Positions 4,569-11,122 of a stretch of 64,000 bases of DNA are shown here, one piece after another. Under the pieces are notes generated by a model. The model was not told where the DNA came from and did not search any database. It saw only the letters and a program-made list of their open reading frames with translations. Numbering within the stretch: the stretch's first letter is position 1; each line of letters opens with the position of its first letter. The stretch spans positions 4,324-68,323 of the forward strand of contig JAHDKI010000012.1 of NCBI GenBank assembly GCA_018436925.1. The letters are read 5' to 3'. The DNA is from Syntrophaceae bacterium (GTDB lineage Bacteria > Desulfobacterota > Syntrophia > Syntrophales > Smithellaceae). The position numbers and the translations under genes are program-made.

Positions 4569-6157
4569 TGCAGACGCCGGAACAAACCCCATCGGAAAAC
4601 ACCCGCGTCGCCCGGGCCGCGGGCATCGTCAGCGCCGCCACGATGATCAGCCGCGTCACGGGTCTGGCGCGCGACACGGTCATTGCCGCTTTTTTCGGCG
4701 CGGGCTGGATCACTGACGCCTTCTGGGTCGCCTACCGGATACCCAACCTGCTTCGGCGTTTTCTGGCGGAAGGCGCTCTAACCATTTCTTTTGTCCCCAT
4801 CTTTACGCAATATCTGGAAACAAAAGGCCGCAAGGACGCGCTCGAACTGGCCTACAATGTTTTCACCCTTTTATCGATCGTGGCCGCGGGCGTCTGCGTT
4901 TTGGGGATTGTCTTTTCCCCGGTGATTGTCTCGCTGATCGGACCGGGTTTTGAACGCGGCTCGGAAAGCTTCGCCCTGGCGGTTTTCTTAAACCGCCTCA
5001 TGTTTCCGTATCTGTTTTTCATCTCTTTGTCCGCCTTGTCCATGGGCATTCTGAACGCTTTCCGGCATTTCACCACGCCGGCGCTGTCGCCGGTTTTGCT
5101 CAACGCCGCCATTATCGCCTGTTCATTTTTCCTGAAAGATCTTTTCCCTCAACCGATCACCGCCCTGGCCATCGGCGTGGTGATCGGCGGCGTTTTGCAG
5201 CTGGCCATCCAATACCCTTACTTGTTGCGATTCGGCGTGCGGCTTCAGTTCCGGTTTAACTGGACGCATCCCGGCATGAAACAGATTGGCCTGCTTTTCC
5301 TTCCGGCGGTCTTCAGCGGCGCGATCAACACCATCAACGTCTTTGTGGGCACGGTTCTGGCAACCCTGCAGCCCGCGGGCTCCGTCACGTATCTTTTTTA
5401 CGCCGACCGGATCATGGAGCTCCCGCTGGGCGTTTTTGCCATCGCTGTGGGCACGGCGACGCTGCCGAGTTTTTCCAGACATGCGGCCACGGGGAATATC
5501 GCCGAACTCAAATCCAGCATCGCTTTTTCCCTGAGAATCACCCTGTTTTTAATTATTCCGGCGATGGCCGCGCTTCTGGCGCTGAGTCTGCCGATTATTT
5601 CAGTCATCTTTCAGCGCGGCGCTTTTGATGTGCGCGCCACAGTGCTGACCGCTCAGGCGCTGTTTTGCTATTCGGTCGGACTTTGGGCTTTTTCCATTGC
5701 GCGGGTCTTTATTTCCACATTTTATTCCCTCCAGGATTCCAAGTGGCCGATGCGGGGGGCGCTTGTCGCTTTTGCGGTCAATCTGGCGGCCAGCCTGATT
5801 CTGATGGGCCCTCTCAAACACAACGGCCTGGCGCTGGCCAATTCGCTTTCCGCAATGATCCATGTCGCCGTGCTCGTCTTCGTCCTCAGAAGAAAAATCG
5901 GCTCTTTTGTCGATCGGGCCTTTTGGCGCTCGGTGGCCAAAATGATCGCTGCAGCTCTGGCCATGCTTGCGTCGATCGGCCTGGTTCATTGGCGCTTCCC
6001 CTGGAATACCGAGGCGGATTTTGCGGCGCGTCTGGCCTTCCTGCTCGTCGCTGTCACACTGGGCGCCGTCGTTTATTTTCTGAGCGCCTATCTGCTGAAA
6101 AGTTCGGAAATTCACGCTCTCGTCAACCTGGTCAAAAAGCGTTTAAACCGTGCCTGA
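4565..6157 (+). CDS. murJ: lipid II flippase MurJ/MviN
   Basis: 530-aa polytopic ORF with the N-terminus AAGIVSAATMISRVTGLARD..AFFGAG characteristic of MurJ. ATGA overlap with the preceding gene. Confidence 0.9.
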   Translation: MMQTPEQTPSENTRVARAAGIVSAATMISRVTGLARDTVIAAFFGAGWITDAFWVAYRIPNLLRRFLAEGALTISFVPIFTQYLETKGRKDALELAYNVFTLLSIVAAGVCVLGIVFSPVIVSLIGPGFERGSESFALAVFLNRLMFPYLFFISLSALSMGILNAFRHFTTPALSPVLLNAAIIACSFFLKDLFPQPITALAIGVVIGGVLQLAIQYPYLLRFGVRLQFRFNWTHPGMKQIGLLFLPAVFSGAINTINVFVGTVLATLQPAGSVTYLFYADRIMELPLGVFAIAVGTATLPSFSRHAATGNIAELKSSIAFSLRITLFLIIPAMAALLALSLPIISVIFQRGAFDVRATVLTAQALFCYSVGLWAFSIARVFISTFYSLQDSKWPMRGALVAFAVNLAASLILMGPLKHNGLALANSLSAMIHVAVLVFVLRRKIGSFVDRAFWRSVAKMIAAALAMLASIGLVHWRFPWNTEADFAARLAFLLVAVTLGAVVYFLSAYLLKSSEIHALVNLVKKRLNRA

Positions 6158-6259
6158 ACGGACTTTGCCGGACATTCCCATTGACTTCACCCGTCCAAAA
6201 TGATAGGAACGTCCAACTTTTAAGTGTTGAAGAAAACACGGATTGCCGGGTTTGCAAAC

Positions 6260-7534
6260 ATGCTGGACATCAAATTTCTAAGACAAAACATTGATTTTGT
6301 GCGAGTCAAAATGGACGAACGGGGCCAGAAGATCGATTTCGACCGGTTTTTGGCCCTCGACGCGAAAAGACGGGATCTTCTTCAAGCTGTGGAAACCTTG
6401 CGCAACGAGCGCAACAGCGTGTCCAAACAGGTGGGGGAACTCAAAAAGAAAAAAGAAGACGCCTCCGAACTCATTGCCAAAATGGGCGATGTCTCGGCCA
6501 AGATCAAGGAATACGACGACACGCTGCGTGTTACCGAAGAAGAACTAAACGCCTTTGTCATGATCGTGCCGAATGTTCAGCACGAATCCGTGCCGCAAGG
6601 AACGGGATCCGAAGACAATCCGGTGGTGCGCACCTGGGGCGAAAAACCGGCCTTCACCTTTGAGCCCAAACAGCATTTCGACCTGGGAGAAGCTCTGGGC
6701 ATCCTCGATTTCGCGCGCGGCGCGAAGATCACCGGCGCGCGCTTTACGCTCTATCGCGGCGCGGGGGCCGCTCTTGAGCGGGCGATTTTCAATTTCATGC
6801 TGGATCTGCACACCACCGAGCACGGCTACACGGAAGTCCTCACGCCGTTTATGGTCAATGCCGACAGCATGACCGGCACCGGTCAGCTGCCGAAATTCAA
6901 GGAAGACCTTTTCAAAATCGAGGGTCTGGAATACTACCTGATCCCAACGGCGGAAGTTCCGGTCACCAACATTTACCGGGATGAAATTCTCGATGAAGAG
7001 ATGCTGCCGGTGTATTATGTGGCCTATTCCCCGTGTTTCCGGGCGGAAGCCGGCTCCTACGGCAAGGACACGCGCGGCCTGATTCGCCAGCATCAGTTCA
7101 ACAAAGTTGAAATGGTCAAGTTCGCCAGGCCGGAAACCTCTTACGACGAACTGGAAAAACTTACCGCCAATGCGGAAGAAGTGCTCAAACGACTGGGCAT
7201 TCCCTTCCGCACGGTCTGTCTGTGTTCGGGAGACCTGGGGTTTTCGTCCGCCAAAACTTACGACGTGGAAGCCTGGATGCCCGGTCAGGATACGTACCGG
7301 GAAATTTCCTCGTGCAGCAACTTCGAGGACTTTCAGGCCAGGCGCGCCGCGATCCGATTCCGGCGCAAAGACACAGGCAAAACCGAATTCGTGCACACAC
7401 TCAACGGCTCCGGCCTCGCAGTCGGCCGAACCGTGGTGGCGGTCCTTGAAAATTATCAGCAGGCCGACGGCAGCGTGATCATTCCGGAGGCGCTGCGACC
7501 GTACATGAGAGGCCTTGAACGGATTACGCCGTAG
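6260..7534 (+). CDS. serS: serine--tRNA ligase
   Basis: Starts [10 protein letters not shown], with a coiled-coil arm and class II motifs ([33 protein letters not shown]). Start moved to Met13 of the ORF. Confidence 0.95.
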
Positions 7535-7726
7535 AACTTTCCCTGTCTTGCCGGATGACATCCGGCCTCCAGGCATCTACCCTGCATCCCATAGGCAGAT
7601 TGAAAAGCCTGCGGGGAACCCGTTTTTAGAATGCCCGATTCGGGCTGGACGCTTTTCCCGGAAAAGCGGAGCCTAAATGACAAACACGGAATCATTTTCC
7701 GCTTTGAGATAAGCTGCGGAAAAACC

Positions 7727-7813
7727 GGCGGGATGGCCGAGTGGTCGAAGGCGGCGGTCTTGACCCGGCATACGCCGGGCGCCCGAAAAACAGGGCGAAA
7801 CCGTTTATTGGTC
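7727..7813 (+). pseudogene. interrupted and truncated tRNA-Ser(TGA)-like copy
   Basis: 7727-7763 matches 8091-8127 of the intact tRNA at 36/37 positions and ends at the anticodon. A 34-nt double-hairpin insert (7764-7797) follows, then aaaccgtt..ggtc, which resembles the anticodon-stem 3' strand and variable arm. There is no T arm or acceptor 3' strand. Confidence 0.75.
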
Positions 7814-7820
7814 TTTGAAA

Positions 7821-8075
7821 ATGCATTATGTTTACATATTGCAAAGCGAGCTGGATAAGGAACTATACGTCGGCATGACGGGAGACCTGAAGCGGCGTTA
7901 CCTGGAACATCAGAGGGGAAATGTTGAAGCGACAAAACGTCGTTTACCCATGAAACTTCTCTGCTATGAAGCATATTTAACAAAAGCGGAAGCAATGCGT
8001 CGGGAAAAATTCCTCAAAAGCAGCGACGGAAGGAAAGATATTCGGAAAAGAATCATCGAAAGCATGATTCAGTAA
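7821..8075 (+). CDS. GIY-YIG (URI-domain) nuclease family protein, YhbQ/COG2827-like
   Basis: The sequence MHYVYILQS...LYVGMTGDLKRRYLEHQRG carries GIY-(10 aa)-YVG and an RR..EH motif. It is visibly AT-richer than its surroundings. The ATG at 7821 lies 6 nt inside the TTG-initiated ORF of the track. Confidence 0.8.
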   Translation: MHYVYILQSELDKELYVGMTGDLKRRYLEHQRGNVEATKRRLPMKLLCYEAYLTKAEAMRREKFLKSSDGRKDIRKRIIESMIQ

Positions 8076-8090
8076 AATTGTAAAGTATCA

Positions 8091-8176
8091 GGAGGGATGG
8101 CCGAGTGGTCGAAGGCGGCGGTCTTGAAAACCGTTGACCGAAAGGTCCGCGGGTTCGAATCCTGCTCCCTCCGCCA
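8091..8176 (+). tRNA. tRNA-Ser (anticodon TGA)
   Basis: Hand-folded cloverleaf with acceptor ggaggga/tccctcc, anticodon loop cttgaaa, a 14-nt variable arm, T arm gcggg-ttcgaat-cctgc and an encoded CCA. Confidence 0.9.
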
Positions 8177-8268
8177 AAAAACTACCCGTGGTTCATAGAA
8201 AGACCGCGGGTTTGGAGGGCAAAGCCCGAAACCCGGCGCATGCCGGGCGAATCCTGCTCCCTCCGCCA
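8177..8268 (+). pseudogene. tRNA-Ser(TGA) 3'-half copy 1 with 35-nt T-loop insert
   Basis: Starts right after the CCA of the tRNA. Order is aaaac.., diverged variable region, ccgcgggtt, 35-nt insert (8213-8247), then cgaatcctgctccctccgcca, which is identical to the tRNA 3' end. Confidence 0.8.
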
Positions 8269-8362
8269 AAAAAAACTACCCGTGGTTCATAGAAAGACCG
8301 CGGGTTTGGAGGGCAAAGCCCGAAACCCGGCGCATGCCGGGCGAATCCTTCTCCCTCCGCCA
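8269..8362 (+). pseudogene. tRNA-Ser(TGA) 3'-half copy 2 with 35-nt T-loop insert
   Basis: Tandem repeat of the previous unit, with two extra A at the start and one G-to-T change in the T stem. Insert at 8307-8341. Confidence 0.8.
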
Positions 8363-8431
8363 GATAATTTTGACTTACGTCTTGAATTATCGGACGTCTT
8401 GTTTTAAAGATACAAGCCTTAACCGGCAAGC

Positions 8432-8526
8432 GGAGAGATGGCTGAGTGGCCGAAAGCGATCGCCTGCTAAGCGATTGTACGCCCTTTAAAGGTGTACCGC
8501 GGGTTCGAATCCCGCTCTCTCCGCCA
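8432..8526 (+). tRNA. tRNA-Ser (anticodon GCT)
   Basis: Hand-folded cloverleaf with acceptor ggagaga/tctctcc, anticodon loop ctgctaa, a 23-nt variable arm, T arm gcggg-ttcgaat-cccgc and an encoded CCA. Confidence 0.9.
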
Positions 8527-8624
8527 TTTAGCGTCAACTGAACCGTGGCGAACTGCAAACCGCGGGTTTGGAGGGCAAAGCCCGAAACCCGGCGCATGCC
8601 GGGCGAATCCCGCTCTCTCCGCCA
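8527..8624 (+). pseudogene. tRNA-Ser(GCT) 3'-half copy with 35-nt T-loop insert
   Basis: Follows the CCA directly. Order is tagcg.., diverged variable region, ccgcgggtt, the same 35-nt insert (8569-8603), then cgaatcccgctctctccgcca, which is identical to the GCT tRNA 3' end. Confidence 0.8.
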
Positions 8625-8668
8625 TTTGAAACACTCTAAACTTATCCCATCCCAAACAACGCCGCCCG

Positions 8669-10420
8669 ATGACCGATTTTTCTGAAAACTTTGTTTTGCT
8701 TGAAACGCTGCGGCGCGATCGCGGAAAAAAAAGAACCCTTTTCTTTGCCGATCCCCTCGACATCATCGAGTGCCGATGCCCGTCCCAGGTCAGCCGATGT
8801 TTCCGGAAAATGGAAACCGCGCGCCGAGACGGCTTCCACCTGGCCGGATTTTTTTCTTATGAATTGGGCTACCTTCTGGAAGAAAGCCTGGCTGCGCTTT
8901 TGCCCCCCGGCGACTTTCCGCTTTTTTGGTTCGGCGTCTACGACAAACCGCAAAGCGCCTCATGCGCACCCAGAGGGGCGGATTTTTATCTTTCCGAGCC
9001 TGCACTCGTTCAGACCCGCGCAAAATACAGCCGGGCCGTGGGCAAAATCAGGGATTTGATCGCAGCCGGCGATACCTACCAGATCAACTACACCACCCGG
9101 GTTCAGTTTCAGTTCGCAGGCGATGTCGCGGCATTCTACGACCGGCTTAAAAAAAACCAGAAAGTATCCTATTCGGCGCTGGTGCGATATTGCGGCAACG
9201 CTCTCGTCTCGCTGTCGCCGGAACTGTTCTTCCGGACCGATCGAAACGGCCGCATCACCGTCAAACCCATGAAGGGAACGGCGCCTTTGCACACACCGGC
9301 CGACTGGCTGAAGAAAGACCCCAAAAACACCAGCGAAAATGTCATGATCGTCGATCTGCTGCGCAATGACCTGGGCAGAATCTGCCTGCCCGGTTCGGTG
9401 CAAGTCCGCAAGCTGTTCGACATCGAAAACTACGAAACCCTCCGCCAGATGACTTCCACCGTGACCGGCAAACTTCACCCCGGCCTGACCATCGAAACCC
9501 TGGTGAAAAGCCTTTTCCCCTGCGGCTCGGTGACGGGAGCGCCCAAAATCCGCAGCATGGGAATCATTCATGACCTGGAAGACGCCCCGCGCCGCATCTA
9601 TACCGGCGCCATCGGCTATTTCGCCCCGAGCGGCGAAGCGGTTTTCAACGTCGCCATCCGGACGCTTGATCTGCGGCGGAAAGAATCCGGACGGTATGAT
9701 GCGACGATGGGTGTCGGAAGCGGAATCGTCTTCGATTCCCGGGCGGATGAGGAGTATGACGAGTGTCTGCTTAAGGCGAGGTTTCTCCAAAACGCCATGC
9801 CGTCCTTCGGGCTTATCGAAACGCTGCGGGTTGAAACGGGGCGCGTTCGTAGGCTTTCGGATCATCTGCGCCGTCTTCGGGCCTCCGCCGACTTTTTCGG
9901 CATTCCCTGCCCGGCGGGCGCGATCAGAAATGCGATCCGGCTTTATAGCGCGACACTTCCGGACATTGCGAAGCTTCGCCTGATTCTGTCCGCCGACGGA
10001 ACCTTCAGGCTCGAATCAGGCCGCCTGCCGGAGACCCCGTCGGACATTCCAACGATCGCCTTGTCCTCTGTCCGGATGTCGTCTGCCGATCCGTTTATCC
10101 GCCATAAAACGACTTTCCGCAAGGCGTACGACGACGAGTTCGCTAAATACTCGGCGAAAGGGTTTTTCGACGTCATTTTTTTAAACGAAAAAGGACAGGT
10201 CACCGAAGGGGCGATTTCCAACCTCTTTGTCCGGATTCGCGGGCGCTGGTATACGCCGCCGGTTTCCTGCGGCTTGTTGCCGGGGATTCAGCGGCGGACC
10301 CTGATGAAAAAATGGTCTGTCCGGGAAAGAATTTTGTCCCCGGACGACCTTCGCCTTGCCGATCAAATCGTGCTGTCCAACGCGGTCCGGGGCATAACCG
10401 AAGTAAGATTGAGAGGATGA
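8669..10420 (+). CDS. pabB: bifunctional chorismate-binding enzyme (aminodeoxychorismate synthase component I-like) / class IV aminotransferase (ADC lyase-like)
   Basis: The N-terminal two-thirds carries chorismate-utilising motifs (SPELFF, PMKGT, GSVTGAPK, GVGSGIV). The C-terminal ~200 aa look like the PabC/class IV fold (HKTT..Y, EGAISNLF). Confidence 0.8.
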   Translation: MTDFSENFVLLETLRRDRGKKRTLFFADPLDIIECRCPSQVSRCFRKMETARRDGFHLAGFFSYELGYLLEESLAALLPPGDFPLFWFGVYDKPQSASCAPRGADFYLSEPALVQTRAKYSRAVGKIRDLIAAGDTYQINYTTRVQFQFAGDVAAFYDRLKKNQKVSYSALVRYCGNALVSLSPELFFRTDRNGRITVKPMKGTAPLHTPADWLKKDPKNTSENVMIVDLLRNDLGRICLPGSVQVRKLFDIENYETLRQMTSTVTGKLHPGLTIETLVKSLFPCGSVTGAPKIRSMGIIHDLEDAPRRIYTGAIGYFAPSGEAVFNVAIRTLDLRRKESGRYDATMGVGSGIVFDSRADEEYDECLLKARFLQNAMPSFGLIETLRVETGRVRRLSDHLRRLRASADFFGIPCPAGAIRNAIRLYSATLPDIAKLRLILSADGTFRLESGRLPETPSDIPTIALSSVRMSSADPFIRHKTTFRKAYDDEFAKYSAKGFFDVIFLNEKGQVTEGAISNLFVRIRGRWYTPPVSCGLLPGIQRRTLMKKWSVRERILSPDDLRLADQIVLSNAVRGITEVRLRG

Positions 10421-10489
10421 TCTTTTTATTTTGCATCGGCCCGATAATATGCTATAGGGCTCCTTCGTTCATTCCAGGAGATTTTTCAT

Positions 10490-10566
10490 GCGCCTGTAGC
10501 TCAGCTGGATAGAGCATCAGACTACGAATCTGGGGGCCGTAGGTTCGAATCCTACCAGGCGCGCCA
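10490..10566 (+). tRNA. tRNA-Arg (anticodon ACG)
   Basis: Hand-folded cloverleaf with acceptor gcgcctg/caggcgc, D arm gctc-agctggata-gagc, anticodon loop ctacgaa, T arm gtagg-ttcgaat-cctac and CCA. Confidence 0.9.
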
Positions 10567-10575
10567 TCCGGTTTA

Positions 10576-10608
10576 AAAGCCGGCTTTGAAAAAAAAGCCG
10601 GCTTTTTT
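10576..10608 (+). terminator. rho-independent terminator after tRNA-Arg
   Basis: aaagccggcttt - gaaaaa - aaagccggcttt stem followed by a T6 run. Confidence 0.7.
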
Positions 10609-10633
10609 CATTTTTCAGCCTCTTGAAATTCCC

Positions 10634-10675
10634 TTGACTTCATCGACCGGTTTATTTATTTTGCATACTAAATAA
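10634..10675 (+). promoter_or_regulatory. candidate sigma70 promoter with overlapping palindromic operator upstream of the MarR gene
   Basis: TTGACT (10634-10639), 17-nt spacer, TATTTT (10657-10662). A perfect 7-bp inverted repeat TTATTTA-N10-TAAATAA (10652-10675) overlaps the -10 element. Confidence 0.4.
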
Positions 10676-10693
10676 TCAGGTCGGGAAGGATCC

Positions 10694-11122
10694 ATGCGAA
10701 GTTACCAGGACGTGATTTTATTCATCCTCAGCAAAGCCTACCAGAAAGTTTACGCCACTTTCAAAGCCAAGACGCAACTTTACGGAATGACGCCGATACA
10801 GGCGCTAGTGTTGCACGCCCTGTATGAAGAGGAAGGGCTTTCCGCCGGAGAACTCGGCAAAAGGCTGGTTTTGGACGGCGCGACCTTGTCCGGCGTTTTA
10901 GACCGGATGGCCGACGGCGGATGGATTACAAAAAATGCAGCCAAAGACGATCGTCGCGTTTTAAACATTCAACTGACGGAAAAATCCCGTCTTTACCGGG
11001 ATACGTTTCTCAAAGATACTGAAAAACTGCATTCGGACGTGCTGTCTTCTCTTTCGGCAGAGGAAAAACGATTGCTCATCCGCATGCTCAAGGATCTGCG
11101 CAAGGAATCCGACGCCGGATGA
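10694..11122 (+). CDS. MarR family transcriptional regulator
   Basis: 142-aa winged-helix pattern (LTPIQALVLHALYEEEGLSAGELGKRL..DRR). ATGA overlap with the next gene. Confidence 0.85.
   Translation: MRSYQDVILFILSKAYQKVYATFKAKTQLYGMTPIQALVLHALYEEEGLSAGELGKRLVLDGATLSGVLDRMADGGWITKNAAKDDRRVLNIQLTEKSRLYRDTFLKDTEKLHSDVLSSLSAEEKRLLIRMLKDLRKESDAG

Follow-up and report, generated by a model that had tools for sequence, protein, structure and literature searches.

How does a bacterial genome come to hold the first 37 nucleotides of a serine tRNA gene, a pair of hairpins and the gene for a very small nuclease immediately ahead of an intact copy of the same tRNA gene? This arrangement occurs in a stretch of 64,000 nucleotides from a Syntrophaceae bacterium (contig JAHDKI010000012.1), hereafter the window, whose coordinates are used throughout; the focus of this study is its serine-tRNA region at 7535-8624. 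Here, a cassette of ~0.4 kb that comprises two hairpins, an 84-residue GIY-YIG gene and a replacement tRNA piece splits the original tRNA-Ser gene. Two bacterial lineages that are very distant from each other, Syntrophia and Patescibacteria, have the same design next to tRNA genes, and because the layout of the window recurs at dozens of independent loci, chance is excluded as its origin. The explanation that we favour, with a confidence somewhat above even, is a mobile cassette that targets tRNA loops, is driven by a minimal nuclease of the Slx1/UPF0213 type and has given rise to non-autonomous derivatives consisting of hairpins only; the role of the nuclease and the mechanism are ones that we infer.

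A nuclease cassette within a serine tRNA gene

The conserved left neighbour of the element is serS, the seryl-tRNA synthetase gene (6260-7534, forward strand). Downstream of it lies the 5' fragment of a tRNA-Ser(TGA) gene (7727-7763, forward strand), which represents nucleotides 1-37 of the resident gene, ends at the third anticodon base and is identical at 36 of 37 positions to 8091-8127 in the intact tRNA-Ser(TGA) gene (8091-8176, forward strand). The twin hairpin module follows directly (7764-7797, 34 nt), and its stems covary throughout the family. The first hairpin (7764-7779) has the form CCCGGC-ATAC-GCCGGG and the second, a variant (7782-7795), the form CCC-GAAAAACA-GGG; each is followed by CG. 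Treated as single-stranded DNA, the insert folds into two hairpins with a predicted energy of -13.8 kcal/mol (z = -3.8), a value equalled by none of 200 shuffled sequences.

Beyond the hairpins the tRNA sequence resumes (7798-7820, forward strand). Positions 7798-7805 (aaaccgtt) correspond to tRNA nucleotides 38-45 and give way to a decayed remnant of the variable arm (tattggtc) and a 7-nt leader, the entire stretch being homologous to the leader of related cassettes (tcaWttggYctttgatg-ATG). The nuclease gene occupies 7821-8075 on the forward strand and is AT-rich, with a guanine-plus-cytosine (GC) fraction of 0.41-0.44 compared with 0.53-0.61 in the flanks. A forward-strand spacer of 15 nt (8076-8090), where 0-8 nt is usual in the family, separates its stop codon from the intact tRNA. 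The initial annotation of this DNA had described the 36/37 match and its end at the third anticodon base, the insert, the resumption of the tRNA as the 3' strand of the anticodon stem plus a shortened variable arm, and an AT-richer GIY-YIG open reading frame (ORF) that stops 15 nt before the tRNA. Every one of these features is present where it had been placed, with nucleotides 38-45 identical to the tRNA and the variable arm reduced to its remnant. ARAGORN and Rfam recognise the two intact tRNA-Ser genes, at 8091-8176 and 8432-8526, and neither calls a tRNA at 7727. The sole mismatch in the fragment, at 7729, puts C for A at tRNA position 3 and would break an acceptor-stem pair with the 3' strand; the 3' units of the window, described below, have no compensating change.

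The 84-aa product of the ORF matches the Pfam GIY-YIG domain PF01541 (E = 4.8e-15), and a Smithellaceae metagenome-assembled genome encodes a protein with the same sequence. A search returned 122 homologues, with identities of 73-82% for those of Smithella/Syntrophaceae and of 55-68% for those of Patescibacteria, Moranbacteria among them. The catalytic GIY-YIG residues do not vary: among 34 aligned sequences, Y5, Y16, G18, H30, R61 and E62 are invariant and R26 is nearly so. A profile search of the PDB returned the UPF0213 proteins 1zg2 (4.4e-13) and 1ywl first, followed by Slx1 and I-TevI, and a Foldseek search with an AlphaFold model (mean predicted local distance difference test score, pLDDT, 91) found 1zg2, Slx1 (7cq2, 7cq3, 6sei and 4xm5, TM-score ~0.65) and I-TevI (1ln0). 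By sequence motifs and predicted fold alike, the protein belongs to the UPF0213/YhbQ/Slx1 branch of the GIY-YIG superfamily, in agreement with the YhbQ-like assignment made at first. It consists entirely of the catalytic domain and one C-terminal helix, with no separate DNA-binding domain, and the homing-endonuclease models of NCBIfam and PHROG match its first 30-40 residues only (E about 0.004-0.07). The family profile collects 5,462 cluster representatives at E <= 1e-10.

Comparison of Smithellaceae loci indicates a functional gene under strong purifying selection. The proportion of nonsynonymous differences (pN) is 0.06-0.20 against a saturated synonymous proportion (pS) of 0.7-0.95, and the corresponding rate ratio dN/dS is 0.03-0.06 in the part of the pairs for which synonymous saturation leaves it computable; L090 was offset by one codon. 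Homologues of 95-140 aa are frequent in the databases and begin to match at residue 25-35; their start codons have probably been mis-called inside hairpins or pseudo-tRNA sequence. Many others lie on contigs of 0.5-1 kb, which suggests that the repeats break assemblies. A distant relative with 42% identity (L142, Azospirillum lipoferum 4B plasmid AZO_p3, 255506-255799), which bears the annotation "GIY-YIG nuclease family protein", is wedged between sufB and sufC, and the wider family may hitch-hike in other conserved operons too.

The ORF is the only gene between the fragment and the intact tRNA, and there is no tyrosine or serine recombinase in that interval, either here or in related loci. 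No integrase or transposase was found among the ORFs of 5000-11000, and the element contains no HUH (Y1) transposase, TnpA or RAYT, its Pfam matches being limited to GIY-YIG and a weak T5orf172. An Rfam search at E <= 10 over 7400-8800 returned the two tRNAs only, apart from artefacts; the ORF survey and the Rfam searches thus uphold the statement that integrase, transposase and intron core are lacking. These results bear on the most familiar explanation for a truncated tRNA gene. Integrative elements classically betray themselves by partial duplication of a tRNA gene (bioRxiv 10.1101/2022.07.05.498093), and the fragments could in principle be attachment-site scars of deleted integrase islands or prophages, or else an artefact of assembly. 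Such an origin is contradicted by the data and has a close to negligible probability: no recombinase gene is present, the whole insert measures ~0.36 kb, the 5' and the 3' part of the tRNA are duplicated equally often, a twin hairpin stands at every junction, and the same architecture is seen at >130 loci in independent assemblies that include multi-Mb long-read contigs.

Association with tRNA genes and movement between them

Relatives of the ORF were catalogued at 80 genome loci from Smithellaceae/Syntrophia and Patescibacteria (L001-L080). At 63 of the 80, a tRNA gene on the same strand starts between -48 and +38 nt from the ORF stop codon, mostly at 1-8 nt, and six further loci end at a contig edge. 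With ~45 tRNA genes per genome of 1-4 Mb, the adjacency expected by chance is, by our estimate, well under 1%. The tRNAs concerned are Ser in 54 cases, covering all four isoacceptors, Tyr in five, and Arg, Gln, Asp and Val in one each. ORF-bearing units are therefore nearly restricted to class II tRNAs (59/63 Ser or Tyr); ORF-less units with hairpins, discussed below, occur at 12 isotypes. An association of this GIY-YIG family with tRNA genes had been proposed at the outset, with tDNA-Ser as the target. The count supports the association very strongly, and tRNA-Ser is indeed the target at most ORF loci, although not the exclusive one.

Most tRNA-adjacent loci carry a copy of the 5' part of the same tRNA 60-130 nt upstream of the ATG. 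This copy extends over nucleotides 1 to ~57 in standard numbering (1-69/71 of long-arm tRNAs), up to the T-loop GGTTCG, or alternatively over nucleotides 1-32/37, up to the anticodon loop. Across 1971 nt at 36 loci, the copies are 97.7% identical to their own tRNA, with no mismatch at 26 of the 36. At sites that vary between genomes, the copy has the base of its own genome in 317/319, 489/492 and 459/465 cases in three of five tRNA groups; it is on these own-genome counts that the test of fragment conservation is based, the figures for between-genome divergence mixing distant taxa. To judge from their sequences, the 5' copies are either regenerated or continually converted against the neighbouring tRNA. 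The initial annotation had likened the layout to an insertion or repair scar. A passive, decaying scar does not fit, because the ORF is under purifying selection and the fragments stay near-identical (~98%) to their own tRNA.

Insertion into tDNA-Ser, as first proposed, is corroborated by empty sites. Four relatives (L138-L141) whose seryl-tRNA synthetase is 88-91% identical and whose YggT/PF1765/MurJ/serS synteny is the same carry an uninterrupted tRNA-Ser(TGA) gene 23-48 nt behind serS and a tRNA-Ser(GCT) gene 55-80 nt further on, with tRNA-Arg(ACG) next in L139-L141. None of the four has a fragment, hairpins, ORF or 3' units at this site. The spacer between serS and the fragment in the window (7535-7726) is 192 nt long, against 23-48 nt at the empty sites, and includes a number of GC hairpins, such as gcccgattcgggc at 7633-7645 and cgcttttcccggaaaagcg at 7650-7668.

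One empty site (L139) and one occupied site (L003) are near-isogenic, and the flank after the tRNA in L139 is 100% identical to the sequence that follows the 3' unit of L003. The 5' fragment of L003 equals the L139 tRNA at 37/37 positions and thus represents the resident allele, whereas its intact tRNA differs from that of L139 at 6/86 positions, in the D loop and through compensatory changes in the variable arm. This comparison identifies the fragments as pieces of the resident gene, now split, and the intact tRNA, or at least its 5' two-thirds, as imported with the cassette. By analogy with L003, at least the 5' two-thirds of the intact tRNA at 8091-8176 would likewise have arrived with the cassette.

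Movement is also apparent at other genes. A paralogous cassette lies at tRNA-Trp in L018 and L019, and the rpmG-tRNA-Trp interval is uninterrupted in the related L017 and L020. At tRNA-Ser(TGA) of Smithellaceae, the same leader and ORF stand behind an insertion in the anticodon loop (window, L001, L003) or in the T loop (L090, L135). The element thus occupies different tRNAs and different loops of one tRNA, and these comparisons of genomic position show it to be mobile. Comparison of the loci likewise shows a cassette composed of the twin hairpin, ~5 nt of loop sequence, a leader, the 84-aa gene and the tRNA portion required to restore a working gene, with the displaced 5' part of the resident gene upstream, capped by hairpins, and its 3' parts, carrying T-loop hairpins, downstream.

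The twin hairpin and its ORF-less copies

The tRNA copy is interrupted directly after TCG, either in the T loop (GGTTCG^) or in the anticodon loop (ACTCG^, TTTCG^ or TCTCG^); the window, L001 and L003 break after CTTGA^ instead. The insert is built as first hairpin, CG, second hairpin, CG, and is followed by ~5 nt of target sequence (AATCC, AAATC or AAACC), a leader of 2-35 nt and the ATG. The core of the first hairpin, GC-ATNC-GC, and that of the second, GC-GNAT-GC, are reverse-complementary to each other. In sequence terms, the module is an inverted hairpin pair that occupies the middle of TTCGAA, the palindrome of the T loop.

Covariation argues strongly for this structure. Over 58 distinct modules the two-hairpin fold is 98.3% paired, and double-sided changes occur in 8/8 unconstrained pairs (104 cells), a result reached by 0/500 shuffles, with the outer stems alike in only 3/63 modules. 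A single 16-bp helix formed by the first hairpin with the second, as in an RNase III site or perfect palindrome, was considered and rejected; it would be only 77% paired and scores below every shuffle, and the module consists of two separate hairpins. A second sequence class and rarer third forms retain the CG-delimited inverted-pair design. A hairpin core is present at 71/80 ORF loci, no further from the ORF than 170 nt on its upstream side or 200 nt on its downstream side, and hairpin class follows ORF clade. The hairpins follow TCG and covary, yet they sit together at one junction rather than at the two ends of the element. In L038, L048, L051 and L059, the displaced tRNA copy (upstream pseudo-tRNA) also has single hairpins of similar type in the region of its D loop, and a third class (TCAGCC-NNN-GGCTGA plus TCCGCC-NNN-GGCGGA) lies in the D-arm region or just upstream of the tRNA in L043, L062, L065 and L067.

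A scan of metagenomes for the hairpin module yielded 57 loci (L081-L137) with 59 instances. In 51/59, a tRNA gene lies <=350 nt away with at most an ORF between; of the remaining eight, four are on short contigs with no called tRNA and four are >650 nt from the nearest tRNA, some of them in tandem arrays. ORF-less instances number 40/59, compared with ~14/59 that bear an ORF. Two kinds of ORF-less unit can be distinguished. The 5' type has the order [tRNA 1-57][hairpins][AATCC + 15-55 nt][intact tRNA] and the 3' type the order [intact tRNA][6-50 nt][GGTTCG][hairpins][AATCC..3' end]; together they affect genes for Ser, Val, Arg, Pro, Thr, Lys, Gln, Gly, Asn, Met, Leu and Tyr tRNAs. In descriptive terms, each is a tandem duplication in which one boundary always falls 5-6 nt from the hairpins and the other shifts, a geometry that would be expected from integration of a small circle at a loop site. 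In L027, L080, L093 and L105 the ORF lies between the tRNA, which precedes it, and the hairpins, which follow. Because the ORF can occur in either unit type, the hairpins mark the junction in the incomplete tRNA copy rather than the ORF. A role for them as leader or regulator of the ORF is ruled out by their position downstream of it in 3'-type units. On this sequence evidence, the constant hallmark of the element is the twin hairpin in a tRNA loop, and not the ORF.

The window itself carries three such 3'-type ORF-less units, which the initial annotation overlooked and which mirror the 5' arrangement. Unit 1 (8177-8268, forward strand) has a canonical hairpin at 8232-8247 and CGAATCC..CCA copied from tRNA-Ser(TGA); unit 2 (8269-8362, forward strand) is a tandem copy with 98% identity to unit 1 and adjoins the native downstream flank, the two units measuring 92-94 nt. 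Unit 3 (8527-8624, forward strand; core at 8560-8610) follows the intact tRNA-Ser(GCT) gene (8432-8526, forward strand), whose 3' end it carries. Each unit consists of a spacer, the 5' strand of the T stem plus TT, a hairpin insert of 35 nt, and CGAATCC with the remaining 3' end including CCA. The 3' end matches the unit's own tRNA in every case, and a core of 51 nt is identical in 3/3 units, with 0 chance matches expected. Their left hairpin is a variant (TGG-AGGGC-AAA-GCCC-GAAA), and CG is absent from the left junction.

Might the interruption be dealt with at the RNA level, the hairpin insert being a small intron or the fragments split-tRNA halves joined after transcription? The inserts do lie in tRNA loops (anticodon, T and sometimes D), as archaeal introns do, group I introns are known at position 35/36 of Patescibacteria tRNAs (PMC13011429), and the 5' fragment and 3' units of the window jointly hold all parts of a tRNA. 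We nevertheless regard this as very improbable. There is no match to an intron or ribozyme family in the window or in 20 related loci, where a search at Rfam gathering thresholds returned only tRNA and rRNA. Every hairpin-bearing copy is without the other half of the acceptor stem and always has an intact tRNA alongside, which speaks against an archaeal-type bulge-helix-bulge (BHB) intron or split tRNA. Some 3' units, such as that of tRNA-Ser(GCT) in the window, have no 5' fragment at all, and the inverted symmetry of the two hairpins is a property of DNA.

The abundance of ORF-less copies raises a different alternative, namely that the twin hairpin and a few T-loop bases constitute the mobile agent. 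It would resemble a repetitive extragenic palindrome (REP) or a miniature inverted-repeat transposable element (MITE), moved by an enzyme encoded elsewhere, with the GIY-YIG gene as a hitch-hiker in a safe niche. ORF-less instances are the majority and stand beside tRNAs of 12 isotypes; the hairpins, upstream of the ORF in one unit type and downstream in the other, are tied to the tRNA junction; L008, L045 and L046 have ORFs with no upstream fragment or hairpins; and the Azospirillum relative could be hitch-hiking elsewhere. We consider this alternative unlikely, given that hairpins accompany the ORF at 71/80 loci in two unrelated phyla, that hairpin class co-varies with ORF clade and that no locus contains another candidate enzyme gene. 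In addition, the ORF in L117 is decaying in place, which explains how ORF-less units could originate. The ORF-less units and fragment-free ORFs are best read as non-autonomous or variant copies of the mobile cassette, but they do loosen the link between ORF and tRNA fragment. That link, as initially proposed, stands in so far as 63/80 ORF loci are adjacent to tRNA genes, and is weakened by hairpin units without the ORF and ORFs without fragments, both of which the initial annotation would have counted against it.

Arrays and multiple copies accompany these variants. L013 (2380-3400) is an array with two identical ORFs, L041 (2830-3680) contains a full ORF together with one that has an internal deletion, L051 (3355-3520) has three hairpin units of 62 nt and L107 (69-912) three hairpin copies. 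Two genomes hold two copies each: JAIGNE01 (L001, L011) and JBAXOD01 (L028, L030). In L034 (3250-3420), a repeated tRNA 5' fragment carries a different hairpin. Some hairpin-interrupted copies pass as tRNAs in ARAGORN or at the Rfam gathering score (L025 2864-2939, L090 2962-3041, L107 824-880 and L119 8508-8584).

A candidate mechanism and its relatives

We are able to outline how such a cassette might work. The catalytic-domain-only nuclease, related to Slx1 and probably dimeric, would break tRNA-loop DNA either at TCG^AA, in the middle of TTCGAA, or immediately adjacent to it, or else beside extruded hairpins. Host break repair would then copy the cassette from an occupied copy, in a manner that is homing-like and formally equivalent to integration of a small circle at a loop site. 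The copied segment would include the complementary part of the tRNA, leaving one intact tRNA in every case, and the insertion would be tolerated for that reason. Repeated cutting followed by repair against the adjacent intact tRNA would keep the fragments identical. Transcription would probably start from the resident tRNA promoter, with RNase P freeing the tRNA a few nucleotides after the stop codon. GIY-YIG enzymes typically leave 2-nt 3' overhangs; as a speculation, the CG that delimits each hairpin and the centre of TTCGAA would fit such ends. The GIY-YIG enzyme SegB of phage T4 is a documented case of them (PMC2330249).

Several observations weigh against a nuclease-driven mobile cassette. 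The 84-aa protein lacks a DNA-binding domain that could supply specificity, the rebuilt tRNA retains the presumed target sequences so that self-cleavage would need to be avoided, and simple homing does not account for the regular 5-6-nt target remnant beside the hairpins. The predominance of ORF-less copies, and the ORFs that lie between two intact tRNAs with neither 5' fragment nor hairpins upstream (L008, L045, L046), belong here too. The case for an imported tRNA comes from a single near-isogenic genome pair. No vector was found: IMG/VR contains 0 matches to the hairpin pattern and no relative by protein profile, and tblastn against phage and plasmid records gave only matches of <45% identity. 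Finally, the cassette has stayed at the same locus in the window, L001, L003 and L005 for long enough to saturate synonymous sites. Such long retention is atypical of the homing-endonuclease cycle of gain, decay and loss, and is compatible with domestication.

A domesticated cassette could benefit its host as a repair or defence nuclease expressed from a tRNA promoter, or as a guard of tRNA genes against integrating elements, with the tRNA fragment and hairpins serving as leader, processing or stabilising signals. The strong purifying selection and long retention at one Smithellaceae locus would suit such a role, the 5' fragment and hairpins show conservation and no decay, and the end of the ORF a few nucleotides before the tRNA suggests co-transcription and RNase P processing. 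We judge it distinctly unlikely all the same: the cassette is present or absent among close relatives, it has multiple targets, tandem arrays and ORF-less copies, and PADLOC defence-system models return no match. As hairpins occur on either side of the ORF, they are no leader for it, and their mutual reverse complementarity speaks for symmetric recognition of DNA and against a signal in RNA. Such probability as domestication and a hairpin-based agent retain comes mainly from the ORF-less majority and the stable inheritance in Smithellaceae. For the present, we have filed the element as nuclease-driven selfish DNA.

How it relates to known systems can be judged from likenesses and differences with several of them. 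In working, the cassette appears most like a free-standing homing endonuclease gene such as segB. SegB (PMC2330249) also has a GIY-YIG domain and an intronless gene among tRNA genes, in the tRNA cluster of phage T4, shows presence and absence between relatives, and presumably spreads through break repair that co-converts flanking tRNA sequence. SegB is a phage protein of 221 aa with a DNA-binding domain and an intergenic gene; the cassettes lie in cellular chromosomes, split a gene and encode an 84-aa catalytic domain only. SegB is not known to have a twin hairpin, partial target duplication or ORF-less derivatives with conserved ends.

UPF0213/YhbQ proteins (COG2827) and Slx1 give the best sequence and fold matches, and those of UPF0213 type are equally minimal in size. 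The structure-specific nuclease Slx1 cleaves branched or hairpin DNA, as would fit a hairpin-associated enzyme, but it requires Slx4 and a RING/PHD domain, whereas the cassette protein is a bare GIY-YIG domain. To our knowledge, no association of YhbQ-type proteins with tRNA genes or hairpins has been reported.

Integrase islands and prophages share with the cassette a tRNA target, a carried portion that restores the tRNA and a displaced partial copy as a direct repeat. However, the islands are 9-121 kb in size and encode a tyrosine or serine recombinase (bioRxiv 10.1101/2022.07.05.498093); the cassettes, at ~0.36-0.45 kb, are 20-300 times smaller, encode the nuclease only, duplicate either the 5' or the 3' part and have hairpins at their junctions. 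Surveys of partial tRNA genes credit integrative elements or CRISPR (same source). REP and bacterial interspersed mosaic element (BIME) sequences with their RAYT proteins, and IS200/IS605 elements, appear broadly similar in their short, GC-rich, covarying hairpins, in inverted pairs as in BIMEs, in inserting immediately 3' of a short specific sequence with no obvious long target duplication, and in existing as many protein-less and few protein-coding copies. The cassettes differ from these in having no HUH/Y1 transposase, their sole protein being a hydrolytic GIY-YIG nuclease, and in inserting only into tRNA-gene loops with partial duplication of the target gene. Loops of stable RNAs are also interrupted, in the same phylum, by the group I introns of Patescibacteria tRNAs (PMC13011429) and by insertions in rRNA genes of the candidate phyla radiation (CPR) (PMC11270868); GIY-YIG-encoding insertions in CPR rRNA genes are not introns (PMC11270868). 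Unlike the introns, the cassette has no ribozyme core and is not spliced, a second intact copy being supplied at the DNA level. Neither PMC13011429 nor PMC11270868 mentions a hairpin-nuclease element. The suggestion that the element belongs to an undescribed type agrees with our finding no account of it in the full-text literature searched, in which subscription journals are scarcely covered.

More tentatively, and with a confidence that falls a little short of even, the element may represent a new class of prokaryotic transposable element. At ~0.4 kb it would be the smallest autonomous DNA element known, with a bare GIY-YIG domain as its sole protein. Its enzyme would recognise CG-delimited inverted hairpins, as cruciform or single-stranded DNA, together with tRNA loops of the TTCGAA type; a built-in partial target duplication would spare the essential single-copy tRNA gene; and the element would spawn hairpin-only copies at any tRNA and cross between Patescibacteria and Syntrophia.

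If this is true, a new type of mobile DNA would be colonising tRNA loops, which are among the most conserved short sequences, by means of a nuclease of ~80 residues and two hairpins, and would solve the problem of insertion into an essential gene by rebuilding that gene. The 5,462 cluster representatives mean that the phenomenon is possibly widespread and hidden under the name "GIY-YIG nuclease family protein". Annotation is affected through pseudo-tRNA calls, and probably through mis-called N-terminal extensions of ORFs and broken metagenome assemblies at tRNA loci. A minimal enzyme with defined specificity for hairpins and TCG^AA would be of interest both as a tool and as a model for the reading of DNA structure by Slx1-type proteins. 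Furthermore, the element marks gene flow that links ultra-small Patescibacteria with syntrophic, Deltaproteobacteria-like hosts in the anaerobic habitats common to both.

Some minor features of the window complete the description of this region. No Shine-Dalgarno sequence lies upstream of the ATG at 7821, and a scan of 7450-8750 for sigma-70 promoters and terminators gave no promoter-like site and no forward-strand terminator, a result that is uninformative on expression. Minus-strand Rfam matches at 8126-8173, 8467-8523 and 8538-8621 (Plastid-psbl-rps4, Plastid-ycf2) are antisense tRNA below the gathering score, and CRISPR-DR28 matches, which score 19.6 bits where the gathering score is 35, fall on the canonical hairpin (8218-8250, 8312-8344 and 8574-8606); both were rejected as artefacts. 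Between tRNA-Ser(GCT) and tRNA-Arg(ACG) (10490-10566) lies a gene for a 583-aa fusion of a chorismate-binding domain with an aminotransferase class IV domain, PabB-PabC-like (8669-10420). Since these two tRNA genes are only 70-190 nt apart in the relatives L003, L005 and L139-L141, the PabB-PabC-like gene may, in its turn, have been inserted into the tRNA cluster.

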